Shown in pieces: positions 3,173 to 25,760 of a stretch of DNA of 64,000 nt. The position numbers and the translations under genes were made by a program. The notes below the pieces were generated by a model. The model searched no databases and had not been told where the DNA came from. It saw only the letters and a program-made list of their open reading frames with translations. The stretch spans positions 80,162 to 144,161 of the forward strand of contig DAOULB010000040.1 of the NCBI GenBank assembly GCA_034420695.1. The letters run 5' to 3'. Numbering within the stretch: the first letter of the stretch is position 1; each line of letters begins with the position of its first letter. This stretch comes from Dehalococcoidia bacterium (GTDB taxonomy: Bacteria > Chloroflexota > Dehalococcoidia > Lucifugimonadales > UBA3495).

Positions 3173-4299
3173 CCCGGGCCGCTCCCGGCTTGGGGAAGGT
3201 TCCCTGACGGGCCCGTGGGGCTCCAGCCTTGGGACAGAGGGGCTTCGTTCTGCTCAGCCTGCTCCACAGGACGCCGGGCCAATTGGGTGATGGACAGGTT
3301 TTGCGTCCAGAGCAGGGCCAGCCCCGCCAAATTCACCGGCAGCCACAGGGCCACAAGGTGGATGAAGGCCCCGTAGGCCCCGGCTAAGGAAGCGCCCACT
3401 CCCAACACCACTAAGGTCTGTTGAGTGACCAGTTCGAAGGGGCCGATCCCGCCGACGGCCGTGGGCATGGCGGTTGCCAGGTTGGAGGTTGCGGTCACCA
3501 GCATAGCCACCAGCAAGAACGCGCCGAAAGAAGGGAAATAATCGTGGAGGCCGAAGGAGTAACCCACCAGCAGGTACATGGAGCCCTCCATAGCCCACAC
3601 CGGCAGGGAGAGCAGGAAGACTATCAGGTGTTTACCGGGCGAGTTCAGGATGGCCAAGCCTAGGATGAAGCCGGTCAATAGGCCGCGGACCCGTGCCTTG
3701 GCCTTGCTTCCCGGAACGAAGCGCAACCCCAATTCCACTATCTTCTGGCTGCTGCCCTGCCTCGCCAGCAGGGTCAGCACCACCAAGGCCGCGGCGAAGA
3801 CCCCCGCTACGGCGATGGAAAGCACGATGGCCGTTCCCCGGGAGAGGCCGGCTTGGCCGCTGAAGGCCCCCATCAGCAGGAGAAGGGGCGCCGACAGGGC
3901 GCAAAAGGCCATCAGGGTCATCCCGTCGTAGACCCGCTCCACTGCAATGGTGGCTAAGGCGGTGCCGGAACTGCACTCCTCGCGCCGGGCCAGGTAGTAG
4001 GCTCTCACCAGTTCCCCCAGCCGGGCGGGCAGGAGGTTGTTGGCCATGTAGCCTATTACAACCACCGGGTACAGCCTGGAAACGGGGAAGGACTGGATGG
4101 GTGACAGCAGGTAGCGCCATCGGAAGGAACGGAAGTAAAGGCCAACGAAATATATGACTATGGCCGGGGCCAGGTAAACGTAGTTGGCCCGGGCCAGGGA
4201 GCCCTTGATTTCGGCGGGGTCAACTTGGAAGGCCAGCAGCCCCAGGAAACCCAGGCTGAAGGCCACCCCCAGCCAGAAGCGCCAGTCACGATAGAACAA
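3169..4299 (-). CDS. Lysylphosphatidylglycerol-synthase TM-domain / flippase-like membrane protein (UPF0104-like)
   Basis: FRSFRWRYLL, GYMANNLLPARLGELVRAY, ERVYD and P..GGIGPFE motifs; multiple TM segments. Confidence 0.85.
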   Translation of the reverse strand: MFYRDWRFWLGVAFSLGFLGLLAFQVDPAEIKGSLARANYVYLAPAIVIYFVGLYFRSFRWRYLLSPIQSFPVSRLYPVVVIGYMANNLLPARLGELVRAYYLARREECSSGTALATIAVERVYDGMTLMAFCALSAPLLLLMGAFSGQAGLSRGTAIVLSIAVAGVFAAALVVLTLLARQGSSQKIVELGLRFVPGSKAKARVRGLLTGFILGLAILNSPGKHLIVFLLSLPVWAMEGSMYLLVGYSFGLHDYFPSFGAFLLVAMLVTATSNLATAMPTAVGGIGPFELVTQQTLVVLGVGASLAGAYGAFIHLVALWLPVNLAGLALLWTQNLSITQLARRPVEQAEQNEAPLSQGWSPTGPSGNLPQAGSGPG

Positions 4300-4428: not shown

Positions 4429-7014
4429 TCAGGGCAGGTAGCTGTAGTACAGGGCGTCGTACCAAGGGTCCTCCAACCGGCGAAAGAGCCAGTAGTTAAT
4501 ACCGTCACTCCACGATTTCCGGCTGCTCAAGGCCGATTGGAAATATCTCAGGTCCTTGGTGAATTGTACCTTGCTGGGCAGTCCCCTGAACCCAAGAAAC
4601 GAGCCCTCATAGGCGCGGTTTTCGCCGGGCCTCCGGTAGCTCTCGGGAAACCAGAGCAGGCTCTTGAGGGGGCCGTCCCTGCGGAAGTGTTCCAAGTCCG
4701 CCTCGTCCCGGTCGCCGTGGACCGTGGTCAGCAGCCTGGCCGAGGCTTCCGTTGATTCTGACACTGGCTTGCAGTCGGAAGTCCAGGCCGGGTCTGACTC
4801 GCTCTTGAAACAGGCGAACCTGAGGCTTTTCTGGTCGTGTAGGTGCCTCACGTACCATTGCAAGGGGTACCATACGTCGTAGTCAACCACTATTTGGGTT
4901 TCAAGATTTTCCCGAAGGGACAGGAGGTCCAACTCCCGGTAGGTTGTCTTCAGGTCGGAGCCGCCTTGGGCGTAAACCAGGACTTCGACGTTGGAATCGT
5001 CGTAGGTGTAGGCGGCCCGGAAGCCGCCCCATATGCTGAATCCCAGCAACAGGGCCGCCAGCCCGAGGCCACCCAGTGCGGCGCCCCGGCGATGAGGGTC
5101 TGCTTGCAGCAGTCCGGCGGAAACCAGCCCCGCTGCCGCGCAAGCCGCCAGCAGGAGCCATTCGGTATTGCCCCAAGTGGACTCCGTATCGACCCACCGG
5201 TAAACCAAGTACACGGCCCCGGCGAGGAGCCCAGGCCAGAGGACCAGTTGGGCGGTGTAGGCCCGGTTCAAGGCCTCCTGCCAGCGCACCCGTTCCAGGA
5301 GGCGCCCCAGGAAAGCCCCGCTGAGGAAAATCAAAGGCAGGGAGATATTTACCAGCAGCCACGGCATTTTCTCACTGGCCACGGTGTAGGCCAGGAAAGT
5401 AACCAAGGCCCACAGGGTCATCACCAGTCCGAGGGGGTCACCCCGCCGCAGGAAATAGACCGCTCCCGTGATCCCGAAGGCCGCCGGAAGATATTCGTAA
5501 ATGGAAACCCCTACGAAGTAGTAGTACCAAGGCTGGTCACCCCTGGCCACCTCTTGCTGGGCCATCCAATAGCCCATGCCTTGCCACACGCCGCTGAAAA
5601 CCCCGGCAAGGTTGGTGAAGAAGGTGGTGTAGAGCAGGGTCCAGATGCCGTAGAACACCCCGGCCAAGCCCAGCCACGCCAGCCCCAGCCAGCGAATCCC
5701 CAGCCAGGCCGAACCGGCTAAGGCGGCCCCCACCACCAGTACTGCCGCGACGAAGTTCAAGGGAATTCCGTTGGGGATTTCCCCCAAGGCGGTGCCCGGC
5801 GGCAGCAGCCAGTGCACCACCCCGCTGACACTGAGCGCAGATGTGAACAGCGCCAAGTAGACCGCGGTCAGCAGGGGTGGGAGGAACAATAACGCCGGGT
5901 CTCCGCGCCAAGTGTTCCGTGAGACGTACAAGGTGAGAGCGGCCGCGGCTGTGAGGACGCCGGCGGCTGCCACGGAAGCCTGCCAGTCTCCGGTTCCAGC
6001 GTCAAAGGGAAGGAGGACCGCAAAGCAGACCGCGGCAACCAGCGCCAGCGGAACACCCAGGGAGCCGGGCAGCTCCTTGACCGGGGTCCCGGAACGGCGG
6101 CTGTGCCAGGTCAGGGCGGTCACGCCCAGCATGGCTACTATGAGGTGAGTCCACCACTGGCCTTGGTACAACGGGATGGATAGGTACGGGCCCTCCCATT
6201 GGGGGGCTCCCACCAGCCCTTCCGAAACGCCGTCGGGGTTGACCAAGGCCAGGCCCAAGGGCCCCTGCAACAGGCCGAAAAGAGGCCCCCACTGGGGGAG
6301 GGTCAAGGTGCATAGCAGGAGGAAGAATCCGGCCGGACCCGCCAGTCCCCGCAGGGAGGTCCTGCGAGTGAAACAGGGAGCCAACTGGGGGAGGGCCAGC
6401 AGGAAGGCCACCCCACCAAAAAACAGGGTCACGAAGTAGGCCGTCTCCTTGGTGGCAAACATGAAGGCCAGCACCGCAGCGGCAAGGAACAGGTAACGGT
6501 TGCGCCCCTCTTCGATGTATCGCCACAGGAGGACCAGCAGGGCCGAAGCCCAGAAGGCCATGATGATGTCGTTGCGCCCGAACCGGCTGAAGTACAGCAT
6601 CACCGGCGAAAGCGCCAGCAGGGTCCCGGTCAACAGGGCGCCGGCGTTGCCGATGCGCTCCCGCAGGAAATAGGGAATCCCCACCAAGGCCGTGCCGAAA
6701 AACACATAGGCCAAGCGGGCGGTGAAGTCGGTGTCGCCGAAGACCCGGATGAACAGGGCCGTCAAGTCTACCTGGAAGGGGCCGTGCATCCAAGGGGAAT
6801 GAATAAACCCGTGACCTTCGGACAGCCGCCACGCTGCCTGGAGGTGGATGGCCTCGTCATAGTGCATAGTGCGGCCATCCAGTTCCCAGAGCCGCAGCGC
6901 CAAGGCAAGGGCCATCAGGCCGAGGAACGCCATTTGCGGCCATTCCAAGGTGATAGTGAGGGTGGGTAGTTCCCGGCGGCGGCCTGGACTTTTACCTGAT
7001 TTCAGCCTGAGCAT
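4429..7014 (-). CDS. TIGR03663-like GT-C (PMT/GT39-like) polytopic membrane protein
   Basis: RLWELDGRTMHYDEAIH, WMHGPFQ, YFSRFGRND, KET, YWMAQQEVARGDQPWYYY, EKMPWL, LVYAQ motifs. Confidence 0.8.
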   Translation of the reverse strand: MLRLKSGKSPGRRRELPTLTITLEWPQMAFLGLMALALALRLWELDGRTMHYDEAIHLQAAWRLSEGHGFIHSPWMHGPFQVDLTALFIRVFGDTDFTARLAYVFFGTALVGIPYFLRERIGNAGALLTGTLLALSPVMLYFSRFGRNDIIMAFWASALLVLLWRYIEEGRNRYLFLAAAVLAFMFATKETAYFVTLFFGGVAFLLALPQLAPCFTRRTSLRGLAGPAGFFLLLCTLTLPQWGPLFGLLQGPLGLALVNPDGVSEGLVGAPQWEGPYLSIPLYQGQWWTHLIVAMLGVTALTWHSRRSGTPVKELPGSLGVPLALVAAVCFAVLLPFDAGTGDWQASVAAAGVLTAAAALTLYVSRNTWRGDPALLFLPPLLTAVYLALFTSALSVSGVVHWLLPPGTALGEIPNGIPLNFVAAVLVVGAALAGSAWLGIRWLGLAWLGLAGVFYGIWTLLYTTFFTNLAGVFSGVWQGMGYWMAQQEVARGDQPWYYYFVGVSIYEYLPAAFGITGAVYFLRRGDPLGLVMTLWALVTFLAYTVASEKMPWLLVNISLPLIFLSGAFLGRLLERVRWQEALNRAYTAQLVLWPGLLAGAVYLVYRWVDTESTWGNTEWLLLAACAAAGLVSAGLLQADPHRRGAALGGLGLAALLLGFSIWGGFRAAYTYDDSNVEVLVYAQGGSDLKTTYRELDLLSLRENLETQIVVDYDVWYPLQWYVRHLHDQKSLRFACFKSESDPAWTSDCKPVSESTEASARLLTTVHGDRDEADLEHFRRDGPLKSLLWFPESYRRPGENRAYEGSFLGFRGLPSKVQFTKDLRYFQSALSSRKSWSDGINYWLFRRLEDPWYDALYYSYLP

Positions 7015-7079
7015 CTTGAAGCCTTTGGTAGTTCACGGGCGTAAGTGGTTCGTGCAGAGACCGGGCCGGCGCGCCCAAG

Positions 7080-9467
7080 TCACTGTTCATACTCGTATAT
7101 GGTTACGTCGTGGCTGGTGAAAACGGGCTTTAAAAAGCCGTGGTTCTCCAGGTTTTCCCAGCCATAGCTCTCCGTCTCCCGGTGACCTTGGTACACGTAT
7201 CTTACCCCGTATAGGTCCAACAGTTCCCGCACTTGGCCGTGGTCGCTGCTGCGGTAAATGGTCTCTACGTCATCGGCCCGGCCTTCGAACAATTGGCTGC
7301 TGCCCCGCCATTGCAACTCATGGCTCGGCCAGCCGAGCACCGTGGCCCGTCCGGTGCTCGACGATATTCGGCCGTACTCGGTGTAGTCGTCCCCCACCGC
7401 CTCCACGATTCGGCCCCATGGGGCAACATCGCGGAGCCAGCCTATGGCGGCGTACTCTCCGGGCCGCTCCCCCTTGATGAAGGCCAGCCCGTCCAAGGTG
7501 TTGGCTTCGAAGGAGTGGCCTTCCCGCAGGAGCCCGGTGCGGTCTAGAGCGGCCCCCGCGGGGTAGTAAAGGGCTGCTGCCACCAGTACGGCAACCAGCA
7601 GCAGCCAAAGCCGATGGCCGCCTGCCTTCATCCAACTTGAACTCAACACCGCACCGGGTTGAGGAAACCTCATAGGACGTGAGGCCCAGTAGAAGATAGC
7701 GTAGCCTCCGGCCAGCCCCAATAGCAGCCAAGCTTGGTAATACACCTTGAAAACCGTGTTCATCCGCCGCAAGCCGCCCCCGAAGGCATCGGCTACGTAG
7801 AATAGCTCCGCCCCGGCCAGCAGGAGGAACCCCGTCAACAGCAAACCCAAGGTGAACACCCGGCCGGGGTCGTCTCCAGAGCGAGCACAGCGGGCCAGGC
7901 TGTAGCAGGCCAAGGCCGCGACGGCCAGGGCGGGCAGTGCCCAACCCGCCCTGTGGAGTATGGAGGCCGTGGAAAAGCTCCCGTCCACGATTCTTGCGGC
8001 AATGGGGGCGGCCATAACCCAGATCGCGAAGGGAAGCAGCATGGTCAAAACTACCGCTAGCAGAAGTGGTCGTTGCTCCCTGTCGTGCAGACCCAGGACC
8101 GGAAGTTGGCGCAACAGGAAGGAGACGCCCAGCAGGGAAAACAGACCCATTACCAGGAGGAAGTGGAAGGGCCTTGTGCCATGCTCCAAGAGGGGCAAGA
8201 CTCCCTTGGCTTGGGTGGAGAATGTCAAATAGAAGGGAAGAAACAGGGCGACGCCAATTGCCAAGATGGACGCGAAGACGAAGATGGCGCGGCCAGCACC
8301 CCGTAGTCCCCGGCGGCAGCCGGGGACGCACCACTTTACCATGAAGACCAAGGCCAGGAAGAATGCGACGGTTACAAAGTCCCAAGTGTTGATGAAGGCC
8401 AGGGAGCCGATGAACATCGCCAGGGCGGCGGCTTCCAGGGGATGGCGTTTCAACCAAGTCAAGGCCGGTTGTTCTTTGTACAGCATCAGGTTCAGGCATA
8501 GGTACAGGGCTAATACCATAAAGGGCAGGGACAGGACATGGGCATGGAGGTCCCCCAGGAGGAAGCTGAAGAAGGGGAATTCGGTGATGGTGTAGTCCAG
8601 GCTCTGCCCGCCGGCGATGGTGTCTATCACCCGGGTGGCGCGCCACCACCACCAGTTCTCCTGTGGGAAGAAGGCGCCGGTCCCGGTCGGGCTCCCCTCC
8701 AGCCCCTTGATGCCCACCCATTCCCAGAAGGCGGCCGACCCCCAGCCTTGGGCCCAGACGAACTCCATGACCCCTTCCAGGTTACCCGCGAGAATAATCA
8801 GCAGCGGCGCGGCCAAGGCATAGAGCGTCGCCCGCCGGACGCCGGCGCCCGACAGGCGTATAAGGTTGTAGAGCAGTCCGAAGGACGCCGAAGCCAGGAG
8901 GGCTGGGACGGAAGCAAGGGCCAGGTTGTAGGCAACGCTTGAGGGGATGGACGTCAACTTGGCGAGCAGGGCCATGATGAAGTGGCCGAAGTAGTAGTAG
9001 CTGATGGAATGGCCGGCAAGCCACGGGTCCTCCGGAGGGAAGAAACGGCTGTGGAGGGAGGCGTTGAAAAGGGCAAGGTCCATCGGCTTTTCGGTGTGGT
9101 TGATGGCCGGTGATTCGGATGTGATCCCTGCCCAGAGCAGGAAGAACCCCAGGAAAAGGACCTCTGCCGCGGCCAAGGCGGGCCAGTGCTGCTTTACAAA
9201 TGAGGCCAGTTCCCGCCAGCGGTCCTTGATCACCCACCAAGAAGCAAACCCAAGAATGAGCACGATTCCCAGGATGGTGTACCGGGCGCTGGGAACCAAG
9301 TGGGTCAGGCCCAGCACCCAAATGGCATAGGAGCAGAGCACCAGGGAAAAGGGCTTGGCCACGGCAAAGCCGCGGTCCGGGAGGCGGTGCAACAATCGAA
9401 AACAAAGGGGGAAGGACAGCAGCCCCAGGAATTCTATGGCCAGAAGCCAAAGGAGCAGGTCAAGCAC
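7080..9467 (-). CDS. DUF2298 (Chlor_Arch_YYY-type) membrane protein
   Basis: EKPMD, DPWLAG..ISYYYFGH, ITEFPFFSFLLGDLHAH, NTWDF, RMNTVFK, TLDGLAF motifs. Confidence 0.85.
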   Translation of the reverse strand: MLDLLLWLLAIEFLGLLSFPLCFRLLHRLPDRGFAVAKPFSLVLCSYAIWVLGLTHLVPSARYTILGIVLILGFASWWVIKDRWRELASFVKQHWPALAAAEVLFLGFFLLWAGITSESPAINHTEKPMDLALFNASLHSRFFPPEDPWLAGHSISYYYFGHFIMALLAKLTSIPSSVAYNLALASVPALLASASFGLLYNLIRLSGAGVRRATLYALAAPLLIILAGNLEGVMEFVWAQGWGSAAFWEWVGIKGLEGSPTGTGAFFPQENWWWWRATRVIDTIAGGQSLDYTITEFPFFSFLLGDLHAHVLSLPFMVLALYLCLNLMLYKEQPALTWLKRHPLEAAALAMFIGSLAFINTWDFVTVAFFLALVFMVKWCVPGCRRGLRGAGRAIFVFASILAIGVALFLPFYLTFSTQAKGVLPLLEHGTRPFHFLLVMGLFSLLGVSFLLRQLPVLGLHDREQRPLLLAVVLTMLLPFAIWVMAAPIAARIVDGSFSTASILHRAGWALPALAVAALACYSLARCARSGDDPGRVFTLGLLLTGFLLLAGAELFYVADAFGGGLRRMNTVFKVYYQAWLLLGLAGGYAIFYWASRPMRFPQPGAVLSSSWMKAGGHRLWLLLVAVLVAAALYYPAGAALDRTGLLREGHSFEANTLDGLAFIKGERPGEYAAIGWLRDVAPWGRIVEAVGDDYTEYGRISSSTGRATVLGWPSHELQWRGSSQLFEGRADDVETIYRSSDHGQVRELLDLYGVRYVYQGHRETESYGWENLENHGFLKPVFTSHDVTIYEYEQ

Positions 9468-24175: not shown

Positions 24176-24319
24176 CCTTTCGCCGGATGCAGGCTTGGAC
24201 CGGCTTCCTCCTTGGCTGCTCCAAGCCTTGGAGTTGAAAGGATTGGGGTTGAAGGGAAGGGTGCGGGCAGAAGCTGCCAGGGCGTCGGCATTGAATAATC
24301 CAAACTATTAGTCCAACTA

Positions 24320-24473
24320 TCCTTTCAATTAGACGCAACACAACATTGCAATTAGACGAACTGTAACATTGCAATTGGACGCTATCGTACATTCCAATAA
24401 TAGGCCATCAAACATTTCAATTGTACGTACTTAAACATTGCAATTGGACGCAAAGTAAAGTTACAATTGGACG
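24320..24473 (+). repeat. Tandem array of seven 16-bp motifs (consensus ACATTGCAATTGGACG) at an exact 23-bp period
   Basis: Units start at 24320, 24343, 24366, 24389, 24412, 24435 and 24458, separated by 7 variable nt; AT-rich against the GC-rich background. Confidence 0.92.
24438..24467 (+). promoter_or_regulatory. Probable promoter embedded in repeat units 6-7, predicting a leaderless mRNA
   Basis: TTGCAA (24438)-N18-TACAAT (24462-24467); ATG at 24474 is 7 nt after the -10 and has no SD sequence. Confidence 0.5.
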
Positions 24474-25760
24474 ATGGATAGTGCCCCACTTTATCCTCGT
24501 TATGCTGAAGGCCCCTTGGTTGAAGCGTTGGCCGACTCGCCGGCGGTGCTCATTCATGGCCCGCGCCAATGCGGCAAGACCACCCTGGCCCGCTGGATTG
24601 GCAGTTCCTTAGGATACGACTACATCAGCTTTGACGATGATGTAGCCCGCGTTGCTGCGGAGGCCGACCCAGCGGGATTTACCTTGGGGTTGCCTGAGCG
24701 GGTAATTTTGGATGAAGTGCAGCGGGTGCCGCTGATTTTCAATTCCTTGAAACAGGTGATCGATGACCGCCGCATTCCCGGGCGGTTTCTACTCACAGGC
24801 TCTTCTCAGGTGTTGTTGGTGCCTGCCCTTTCGGACTCCTTGGCGGGCCGAATGGAAATCTTGGAGTTGCATCCCCTATCCCAGTGTGAAATGTATGGAG
24901 GCGTACCCAACTTTCTCGACGACTTGTTCTCTGGGTCGTTCCAGACCAATATAACTCAGCGGCTCAGCGACGAATTGGCGAACCGAATAACGGCGGGCGG
25001 GTATCCGGCGGCCTTGGCCCGTCCCACTGCCCGCCGCCGCGCCAACTGGTACCGGAACTTCATCGAAGCCCAAGTGCAGCGGGACGTGCGGGACATGGCA
25101 AGGATCAGCTCCCTTGACCTTTTGCCGAGATTGCTCAGCGCCGCCGCTTCTCAAACTGCCCGGTTGTACAACCTATCCAGCCTGGCATCGCCCTTCCAAC
25201 TTAGCCGCCCCACCATAGGTGACTATGTGGAGTTGCTGGAGCGCTTGTTCCTCATCGACCGGCTTCCTCCGTGGTATGACAACAGGCTGAACCGCTTGGT
25301 GAAAACCTACAAGCTTCACATTGGTGACACAGGCGTCGGATGCGCTTTGCTCGGTTCCAACCCAGCAACGCTGGCCCAGGACCGGTCTCTCTTGGGCCAG
25401 TTGTTGGAAACCTTCGTGTTTCAGGAGTTGAGGCGCCAAGCGGTGTGCCAGGAGTTGCCACTGACCTTTTATCACTATCGCGACAAAGACCAAGTGGAAG
25501 TCGACATTGTCATTGAGCGGGGGGCACGTGCCGTGGCCGGCGTCGAAGTAAAGGCCGCCGCCTCGGTCGCCCCGTCGGACTTTCGAGGCCTCCGCAAGCT
25601 GAAGAGGACGGCCGGCGACCGGTTCACGGCCGGAGTGGTGCTCTACGACGGTGAAGTAACCGCCAGCTTCGGCGGCGGTATGTTCGCCGTTCCGCTGCGC
25701 ACCCTCTGCGAAGGTCGATACGTTGGTGCAGAATCCTTGGTGCTGGAGGGAGCCGTTTGA
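24474..25760 (+). CDS. AAA+ ATPase (AAA_14-like) with C-terminal DUF4143 / PD-(D/E)xK-like domain
   Basis: Walker A GPRQCGKT, Walker B VILDEVQ, GRFLLTGS, ESLAGR-like DSLAGR, K.HIGDTG, LLETFVFQEL, YHYRDKDQVEVDIVIE...VEVKAA. Confidence 0.9.
   Translation: MDSAPLYPRYAEGPLVEALADSPAVLIHGPRQCGKTTLARWIGSSLGYDYISFDDDVARVAAEADPAGFTLGLPERVILDEVQRVPLIFNSLKQVIDDRRIPGRFLLTGSSQVLLVPALSDSLAGRMEILELHPLSQCEMYGGVPNFLDDLFSGSFQTNITQRLSDELANRITAGGYPAALARPTARRRANWYRNFIEAQVQRDVRDMARISSLDLLPRLLSAAASQTARLYNLSSLASPFQLSRPTIGDYVELLERLFLIDRLPPWYDNRLNRLVKTYKLHIGDTGVGCALLGSNPATLAQDRSLLGQLLETFVFQELRRQAVCQELPLTFYHYRDKDQVEVDIVIERGARAVAGVEVKAAASVAPSDFRGLRKLKRTAGDRFTAGVVLYDGEVTASFGGGMFAVPLRTLCEGRYVGAESLVLEGAV

Follow-up and report, generated by a model that had tools for sequence, protein, structure and literature searches.

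What reads a strictly phased array of short direct repeats that runs up to the very start codon of a gene for an ATPase-nuclease, and what might it do there? The question is raised by a locus in a 64-kb stretch of DNA from a Dehalococcoidia bacterium (contig DAOULB010000040.1; the whole stretch is called the window), in which seven 16-bp units precede a gene for a 428-residue protein of the AAA_14/DUF4143 type. The original prediction, made from the DNA letters, was that the ATPase oligomerizes on this iteron-like array and thereby represses its own gene, possibly as part of a defence or selfish module. Our analysis showed that, as a cis-element, the array is conserved throughout this clade of genes. 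We propose, with a probability of roughly 0.6, that protomers of the protein line up head-to-tail on the array, one on each unit, and that this cooperative binding represses the protein's own leaderless promoter. Array and gene are best explained as one compact, horizontally mobile module.

Results

A phased array ends at the start codon

The array has the layout originally described: seven 16-bp units, separated without indels by seven-nucleotide spacers, the last unit ending on the base directly before the ATG (Table 1). The window's seven spacers have no mutual resemblance. The repeat of period 23 was also called by Tandem Repeats Finder. A search for the 16-mer, suggested along with the original prediction, gave five matches to the consensus ACATTGCAATTGGACG with at most 3 mismatches, every one of them inside the array; 0.37 were expected, and 5 matches were reached in none of 100 shuffles. 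The array has a GC content of 36%, compared with 61% for the window. A second array and a paralogue of the DUF4143 gene were both looked for in the 64 kb, and none was found. The palindromes proposed for the unit core, ATTGCAAT and CAATTG, are present in the window but are not kept in the homologues, where the variants TTTCAAT and CAATCAGCCG are common. The unit is therefore functionally asymmetric, as would be expected if protomers sat head-to-tail, each on a unit of its own.

The array is linked to the gene across phyla

A protein-based genome scan yielded 80 homologous loci with 47-82% identity, which are referred to by L numbers. They come from Dehalococcoidia, several Gammaproteobacteria, Binatia, Gemmatimonadota, Latescibacterota, Nitrospirota, Planctomycetota, Zetaproteobacteria, Bacteroidota and others, representing more than 10 phyla. 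The same kind of array is found almost throughout in the 200 nt upstream of the homologous genes. According to a position weight matrix, at least one phased pair of units is present in 72 of 79 homologous loci, at a density of 9.1 pairs per kb upstream of the gene versus 0.011 per kb elsewhere in the same loci. The matrix also finds a rigid unit spacing of 23 or 22 nt. The number of scored units per locus ranges from 0 to 11, and most arrays have 3-7. When each upstream region was compared with itself, the best period was 23 in 57 loci and 22 in 17, together 74 of 77; in control segments the best period favours multiples of 3. Fixed-period arrays before homologous genes, which the original prediction had called for, are thus the rule. 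Over 75 non-redundant arrays, the information content is 1-2 bits at unit positions 4-16 and ~0 bits in the spacers. The combination of conserved cores, free spacers and rigid spacing first noted in the window is thus shared by its homologues.

We also searched in the reverse direction by scanning metagenomes with a two-unit DNA pattern alone, which gave at least 120 loci with at least 121 arrays. Among the 121 arrays listed, 93 lie immediately upstream of the gene or its remnants. A full-length homologue directly follows 54 of them, an N-terminal part of the gene that reaches the contig end follows 19, and a full-length but split gene follows 2, which makes 75 with the gene; the other 18 precede internally deleted remnants. 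Nothing recognizable lies downstream of the remaining 28, of which 14 have room for it (at least 1.3 kb). The array is largely specific to the DUF4143 gene, and decayed genes and orphan arrays are common. The same array before unrelated genes had been named as a finding that would count against the original prediction. On this point the 93 arrays associated with the gene or its remnants are favourable; the solo arrays call for caution.

Some arrays have a more complex structure. The array in L045 (3610-3975) has 11 units in three blocks (4+3+4) with two related spacers of ~60 nt between them, a higher-order duplication of array and spacer. Recent 46-bp duplications, which comprise two units with identical spacers, are seen in L046 and L047. 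L048 has a divergent upstream repeat at 3880-3990 with three near-identical 23-nt units (CTGACAAACGGCCAGGCGTAAAC), and in L073 (3800-3960) the upstream repeat is an unrelated one of ~46 nt (…ACATACCCATATCAG…).

The last two units form a predicted promoter

Units 6 and 7 had been predicted to supply a promoter of the form TTGCAA-N18-TACAAT. This element, at 24438-24467, is the sole sigma70-like site between 24100 and 26000, and the homologues back it. In 43 of the 75 non-redundant arrays, the last unit is separated from the start codon by 0-2 nt. In these 43 promoter-proximal units, position 6 is A in 91% of cases versus 18% of 235 inner units, in which G (55%) and T (27%) prevail. With A at position 6, TTGCAAT becomes TTACAAT and so includes the -10 hexamer TACAAT; this conserved switch from G to A creates the hexamer in the last unit only. 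In the window, 6 nt lie between the -10 element and the ATG, and the predicted +1 is therefore at or adjoining the A of this codon. No Shine-Dalgarno sequence precedes the ATG at 24474, the open reading frame (ORF) 24474-25760 has no in-frame start further upstream, and the homologues align with the window protein from residue 1. The gene is predicted to be leaderless, with a promoter geometry that is conserved in 43 arrays. The leaderless reading of the original prediction thus draws on conservation across many phyla.

The gene encodes a predicted AAA+/winged-helix/nuclease-like protein

The protein had been described as an AAA+ ATPase with a C-terminal (D/E)xK nuclease-like motif, a description borne out by its Pfam domains, its invariant residues and an AlphaFold2 model. 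The AAA_14 domain matches residues 22-140 with 89.1 bits (gathering cut-off 27; E 3e-25), and DUF4143 matches residues 202-361 with 151.6 bits (gathering cut-off 28.1; E 2e-44). The Walker A and Walker B motifs read GPRQCGKTT and ILDEVQ, respectively. The PADLOC model PDLC04790 (PDC-S01) covers residues 5-413 of 428 (E 1.2e-154). PDC-S01 is a single-gene system, and no partner gene is conserved beside the homologues. A PDB sequence search found Walker-A matches only and no solved relative, NCBIfam has no family model for the protein, and an exact-sequence look-up returned nothing on record.

An AlphaFold2 model from a shallow alignment (74-82% identity) had a pLDDT of 60 and was discarded. The model used here, from a broader 75-sequence alignment, has a pLDDT of 84 and a pTM of 0.85. 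It consists of an AAA+ core (residues 1-140), a lid (147-205), a winged helix (to ~285) and an alpha/beta domain (286-413). The modelled winged helix comprises helix 214-225, a strand, helices 234-241 and 245-258, and a two-stranded wing to ~285. A DNA-binding domain is thus probably present, since this canonical winged helix follows the AAA+ lid. The best Foldseek matches of the model are the archaeal AAA+ ATPases SSO1545 (2fna) and PAB2304 (2qen) and 2qby_B (these three at E 4e-7 to 2e-6), and RuvB, in all of which an AAA+ domain is followed by a winged helix. E is 2.4e-6 for 2qby_B, an Orc1/Cdc6 protein on origin DNA, and ~1e-6 for 2fna and 2qen. In the C-terminal domain, E312/E318, D344 and E358-V-K360 are invariant across 75 homologues, and the strands at 330-360 have a pLDDT above 90. 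The conserved acid D344, the E358-V-K360 motif on the core sheet and the helix glutamate E312/E318 are the features of a PD-(D/E)xK fold. DUF4143/COG1373 has been classified as PD-(D/E)XK family 100, of unknown function (PMC3424549). On the basis of the model, we are confident in predicting a product in which an AAA+ ATPase with its lid is joined to a winged helix and to a PD-(D/E)xK nuclease-like domain.

Table 1. Position of the array, the predicted promoter elements, the gene and its domains in the window
Feature	Position	Strand	Description or basis
Seven-unit array, 16-bp units, exact 23-bp period	24320..24473	+	Sequence reading, Tandem Repeats Finder
U1	24320-24335	+	4 mismatches to ACATTGCAATTGGACG, in phase
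U2	24343-24358	+	0-3 mismatches to ACATTGCAATTGGACG
U3	24366-24381	+	0-3 mismatches to ACATTGCAATTGGACG
U4	24389-24404	+	Degenerate, 5 mismatches to ACATTGCAATTGGACG, in phase
U5	24412-24427	+	0-3 mismatches to ACATTGCAATTGGACG
U6	24435-24450	+	0-3 mismatches to ACATTGCAATTGGACG
U7	24458-24473	+	0-3 mismatches to ACATTGCAATTGGACG
Predicted -35 hexamer TTGCAA	24438..24443	+	Within unit 6; TTGCAA/TTTCAA is the conserved core of inner units
Predicted -10 hexamer TACAAT	24462..24467	+	Within unit 7, 6 nt before the ATG
Gene for 428-aa AAA_14/DUF4143 protein (PADLOC PDC-S01)	24474..25760	+	Pfam, PADLOC HMMs
AAA+ core and lid, residues 1-205; Walker A 29-37, Walker B 78-83	24474..25088	+	
Predicted winged helix, residues 214-285; recognition helix ~245-258 (SRPTIGDYVELLERLF), then beta wing	25113..25328	+	AlphaFold2, Foldseek
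PD-(D/E)xK nuclease-like domain, residues 286-413	25329..25712	+	Pfam, conserved residues, AlphaFold2

Array motif and protein change together

If the gene product reads the array, the unit motif should follow the protein. The distance between motifs correlates with the distance between proteins (Mantel r ~0.5, p<=0.0005), and different motifs are found at 35-47% identity, so that the proposed co-variation with protein phylogeny is seen. In L053, L055, L056, L062 and L068 the unit motif is CTGACAATTAGTCG and the predicted recognition helix starts with SRNT(I/V)(H/E), while L074-L080 combine TAACGATTGGACG with DRLT(I/V)(K/R). The zetaproteobacterial loci have TTTACAATTGGACG and a helix that starts with SRQT.... 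L218-L220 (44-45% identity) carry TTCCGGAATTTACG and a related variant at a period of 22, and their helix starts with D(H/G)KTA. In L203 (35% identity), GCAAATGGTGG recurs with a period of 23 and the helix starts with QRVT. Array and gene thus co-evolve, and from the structural model we infer that the winged helix is the reading domain. With the co-variation, the computational tests put forward in the original prediction have all come out as it expected.

In homologues with at most 33% identity (24-33%; a small sample from plasmids and viral contigs), inverted repeats replace the direct repeats next to the ATG. The inverted repeat CCTTGCAA-N21-TTGCAAGG abuts the ATG in L208, L209, L214 and L226, and near-perfect palindromes of 19-20 nt do so in L205, L206 and L212. 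Several of these seven genes adjoin resolvase, integrase or ParB genes. Judged from these upstream sequences, the whole family may share a repeat operator located at a start that is probably leaderless, and the phased array would be the version of this large clade.

Genomic context, mobility and solo arrays

Homology among the loci extends no further than the first unit on one side and the stop codon on the other. The genomic context differs from lineage to lineage, no second conserved gene accompanies the array, and proteins that are more than 70% identical occur in different phyla. The last of these observations indicates that the module of array and gene spreads horizontally. Of 2.9 million viral contigs, 9 contain the gene and 3 the degenerate array pattern, indicating that the module is not phage-borne as a rule; the exact two-unit pattern had 0 matches in viral contigs. 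In L001, a complete type I restriction gene hsdR (5321-8491) starts 24 nt after the DUF4143 stop codon, so that in this lineage the gene is part of a restriction-modification locus or borders on one. L008, L013 and L016 have the same sequence downstream of the gene. In L011, L017 and L022 the gene abuts a tRNA-like sequence, as judged by eye.

The window gene lies among housekeeping genes: upstream are trmD and genes for an amidohydrolase and a PD40 propeller protein, and downstream are a flavin reductase gene and nuo genes. These flanking genes were found beside none of the 80 homologues, and there was no empty site for comparison. The interval from the stop codon of the PD40 gene (24175) to the array contains an inverted repeat, GGCTTGGA…TCCAAGCC (24192-24227), and two copies of a 15-nt tandem repeat called by Tandem Repeats Finder (24228-24257). 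No T-run is present in 24192-24257, and a terminator scan raised no flag there.

Several loci have more than one array. In one clade of Gemmatimonadota and Latescibacterota, an array of 4-5 units is followed by a leader of ~105-130 nt, the ORF and a second array of 3-4 units in the same orientation at or just after the stop codon (arrays at 3780-3870 and 5430-5520 in L032). L034, L035 and L069 share this two-array layout with L032, and L039 is without the downstream array. The first unit of the downstream array in L034 and L035 lies within the last codons of the gene. Conserved neighbours flank the L032-type loci, the upstream one being, by eye, the end of a DNA polymerase III alpha gene (DnaE2-type). 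In L003 (3185-3367), and likewise in L004, a mini-array of two units lies ~800 nt upstream of the main array, and after it comes ATGCAAAG, with which the DUF4143 gene also begins (its first 8 nt). In L003 this sequence opens a 47-aa ORF that is antitoxin-like and has an acidic tail, and a degraded PIN-like remnant comes next (Pfam PIN E 0.045, below threshold). In L112, read as the reverse complement of the stored locus, same-orientation arrays at 121-183 and 3430-3468 flank ~3.2 kb. By eye, this interval contains the truncated beginning of a DUF4143 gene, a toxin-antitoxin pair that is Xre/RES-like, a tRNA gene and, on the other strand, integrase-like genes.

Gene decay with retention of the array is frequent. 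Intact arrays with internally deleted or truncated genes, whose junctions are scattered, are found in the metagenome loci L094, L096, L101, L106, L122, L132, L149, L181, L184, L187 and others, and L041 (Opitutales) has a truncated gene copy of 154 aa. The isolate labels of L008, L009, L021, L031, L032, L035 and L037 (SB06xx_bin, IRC4_bin, APA_bin, RHO3_bin, Plut_) resemble what we take to be labels of sponge or coral symbiont bins. If this reading of the labels is right, the clade may be enriched in such symbionts.

Discussion

Proposed mechanism of autorepression

Combining the array, the promoter and the modelled protein, we propose the following mechanism. The -35 element in a unit and the -10 element in the next one would form a sigma70-type promoter that gives a leaderless transcript. 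Each asymmetric 16-bp unit would be read by one winged helix. Direct repeats at a fixed distance of 22 or 23 bp, about two helical turns, would set the protomers head-to-tail and bring neighbouring AAA+ domains into contact. These contacts could make the occupancy of the array cooperative, probably ATP-dependent and filament-like. With the last two units occupied, the promoter would be occluded and RNA polymerase blocked, and the upstream units may serve as nucleation and buffer sites. The resulting steep negative autoregulation would hold a potentially dangerous nuclease at a low set-point. A leaderless and self-contained expression signal would also suit a gene with a history of movement between phyla. 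That the encoded protein itself binds the array, that it represses, and that binding is cooperative and ATP-dependent are what we infer from the combined data.

A number of observations weigh against this mechanism or limit its support. The co-variation specific to the winged helix is weak once the rest of the protein is controlled for (partial Mantel r 0.13-0.15, p ~0.04-0.05), and co-variation therefore does not pin down the reading domain. The position weight matrix was trained on the same upstream regions to which it was applied; the period test and the search of metagenomes with a DNA pattern are independent of it. The 3-11 sites exceed the needs of simple repression, and the 18-nt spacer between the -35 and -10 hexamers differs from the optimum of 17 nt. 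Furthermore, 14 of the 121 arrays listed are followed by at least 1.3 kb of contig without the gene, and some loci carry arrays on either side of it. The solo and two-sided arrays may point to an array function beyond regulation.

Alternative explanations

The most serious rival is that the array is mainly a site of recombination or mobility, on which the nuclease acts to insert, move or delete the gene in a homing-like or cassette-like manner, regulation being secondary. It would account for the close relatives (>70% identity) in different phyla and unrelated contexts, and for the frequency of solo arrays and internally deleted genes. It also draws on the loci with multiple arrays: L032, L034, L035 and L069, where same-orientation arrays lie on either side of the gene between conserved neighbours; L003 and L004, where the second two-unit array and the first 8 nt of the gene enclose the antitoxin-like ORF and PIN remnant; and L112 with its toxin-antitoxin pair, tRNA and integrase-like genes between the arrays. 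However, a second array is absent from the window and most loci, no inverted-orientation arrays or target-site duplications were seen, and the deletion junctions are scattered and do not lie at the array edge. Flanking arrays can also come from tandem duplication followed by gene decay, and a pure recombination site would have no need of a last unit specialized as a -10 element. We therefore regard this rival as unlikely. Slightly less likely still is a role in which the protein-bound array activates transcription, or only loads and assembles an ATP-dependent filament that acts elsewhere, as with ParB/parS or DnaA. Initiators do have the AAA+ and winged-helix architecture, the number of sites far exceeds what a repressor requires, and solo arrays exist, but sites that overlap the predicted -35 and -10 elements and abut the +1 have the geometry of repression.

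The remaining alternatives concern what the array is bound by or belongs to. A conserved host transcription factor or nucleoid protein could bind the units in place of the encoded ATPase, given that TTGCAA resembles a -35 hexamer and that AT-rich phased repeats can attract nucleoid proteins. Since the context differs in every lineage and the array keeps company with this gene alone, across more than 10 phyla and with no second conserved gene alongside, we consider a host factor improbable; the shift of the motif with the protein clade also speaks against it. Plasmid iterons and parC arrays have a similar period of 22-23 bp, a similar number of units and a similar position beside the gene of their binding protein. 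The array matches them in all three respects, and distant plasmid homologues often adjoin resolvase, integrase or ParB genes, so that it might be an iteron-type replication origin or a parC-like centromere belonging to a plasmid-like element that has integrated. Genes for Rep, ParA, ParM or ParR were not found, though, and no shared AT-rich unwinding element or DnaA boxes were seen on reading the upstream sequences, for which no formal search was run. The flanking genes are chromosomal housekeeping genes and the array doubles as a predicted promoter, making such an origin or centromere very improbable. We give least credence, next to none, to the array being transcribed as a functional repeat RNA, an alternative raised in the original prediction, or being a neutral slippage product. 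It is a tandem repeat in an intergenic region, as either would be, but it has no Rfam match, its folding energy is no better than that of shuffled sequence (z -1.1, -1.5), and the sole promoter-like site would fire out of its 3' end. Slippage, which the original prediction had already argued against, is excluded by the conserved cores with free spacers and by their conservation across phyla.

A bolder version of the autorepression mechanism is speculative, and we think it doubtful. The array would be the cognate DNA of an ATP-dependent helical nucleoprotein filament (ORC/DnaA-like), with protomers set head-to-tail at 22-23 bp each, that stores the inactive nuclease on self DNA and acts as the switch of an immune or selfish module. 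The solo, two-sided and toxin-antitoxin-enclosing arrays would be traces of array-directed recombination, and the palindromic operators of distant homologues would make this a family-wide principle for PDC-S01.

Implications for the PDC-S01 family

PDC-S01 is reported to rank fourth in frequency among candidate defence systems of prokaryotes, one survey having counted ~39,000 copies, and is experimentally unvalidated (PMC12988326). One representative was tested in E. coli B against phages T4, T5 and T7; four other candidate systems were reported as protective and PDC-S01 was not (PMC12881386). This is the sole phage test that we found for a member, and the defence or selfish role suggested in the original prediction is a putative one. 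The literature searchable on DUF4143, COG1373, PDC-S01 and the motif describes no upstream array, DNA-binding specificity or regulation. Our data support an autoregulatory, iteron-like operator array on a very abundant ATPase-nuclease family, for which we found no prior description in the literature searched.

The conserved phased array predicts a specific DNA target for a PDC-S01-type protein, as well as tight autorepression and a leaderless expression signal that is independent of the host. Heterologous tests with the native upstream region may therefore be silenced, which could explain why the tested representative is not among the protective systems. The motif and its period provide a simple genomic marker for the gene, its decayed copies and orphan arrays. 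If the proposed mechanism is true, an initiator-like AAA+/winged-helix protein fused to a nuclease uses iteron-like phasing on the chromosome.

Comparison with known systems

The layout resembles plasmid iterons, parC operators and Orc1/Cdc6 boxes, but lacks features that define each of them. Like the iterons of pPS10, R6K, RK2, P1 and F, it consists of tandem direct repeats in which the cores are conserved, the spacers are free and the period is rigid at ~22 bp, with 3-11 copies beside the gene of the presumed binder and, as proposed here, coupled to autoregulation. The iteron binder, however, is a WH1-WH2 Rep protein, whereas here a chromosomal gene encodes an AAA+/winged-helix/nuclease protein. 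Rep autorepression uses a separate inverted repeat, whereas here the array itself would be the promoter. Of the features that define an iteron/Rep origin, the direct repeats are thus present, but a Rep initiator and a location on a replicon are not. Orc1/Cdc6, SSO1545 (2fna) and PAB2304 (2qen) have the AAA+ core, lid and C-terminal winged helix of the modelled protein, and Orc1/Cdc6 genes likewise adjoin repeated binding sites of their own product. In contrast to them, the window protein has an additional PD-(D/E)xK domain and no Cdc6/ORC Pfam match, and its head-to-tail direct repeats form a predicted promoter, unlike the inverted boxes around an unwinding element.

No phased reverse-strand arrays, as at Tn7- or Mu-type ends, were found within ~4-5 kb in 81 loci, and there is no transposase gene beside the window gene. 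A CRISPR array was considered and rejected: the units of 16 nt and spacers of 7 nt compare with repeats of at least ~23 and spacers of at least ~26, there is no Rfam match, and no cas genes are nearby.

In parC-ParR and tubC-TubR, the type II and III partition systems, phased direct repeats likewise lie upstream of the operon promoter and overlap it, and a product of the operon coats them cooperatively and represses its own expression. The present case differs in being a single chromosomal gene with a nuclease domain, with no pair of partition NTPase and adaptor. Among defence candidates, the window protein is a full-length member of PDC-S01, matching PDLC04790 and having both Pfam domains above the gathering cut-off. 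The position of the L001 gene just upstream of hsdR agrees with the definition of PDC-S01, which was based on its embedding in defence loci.

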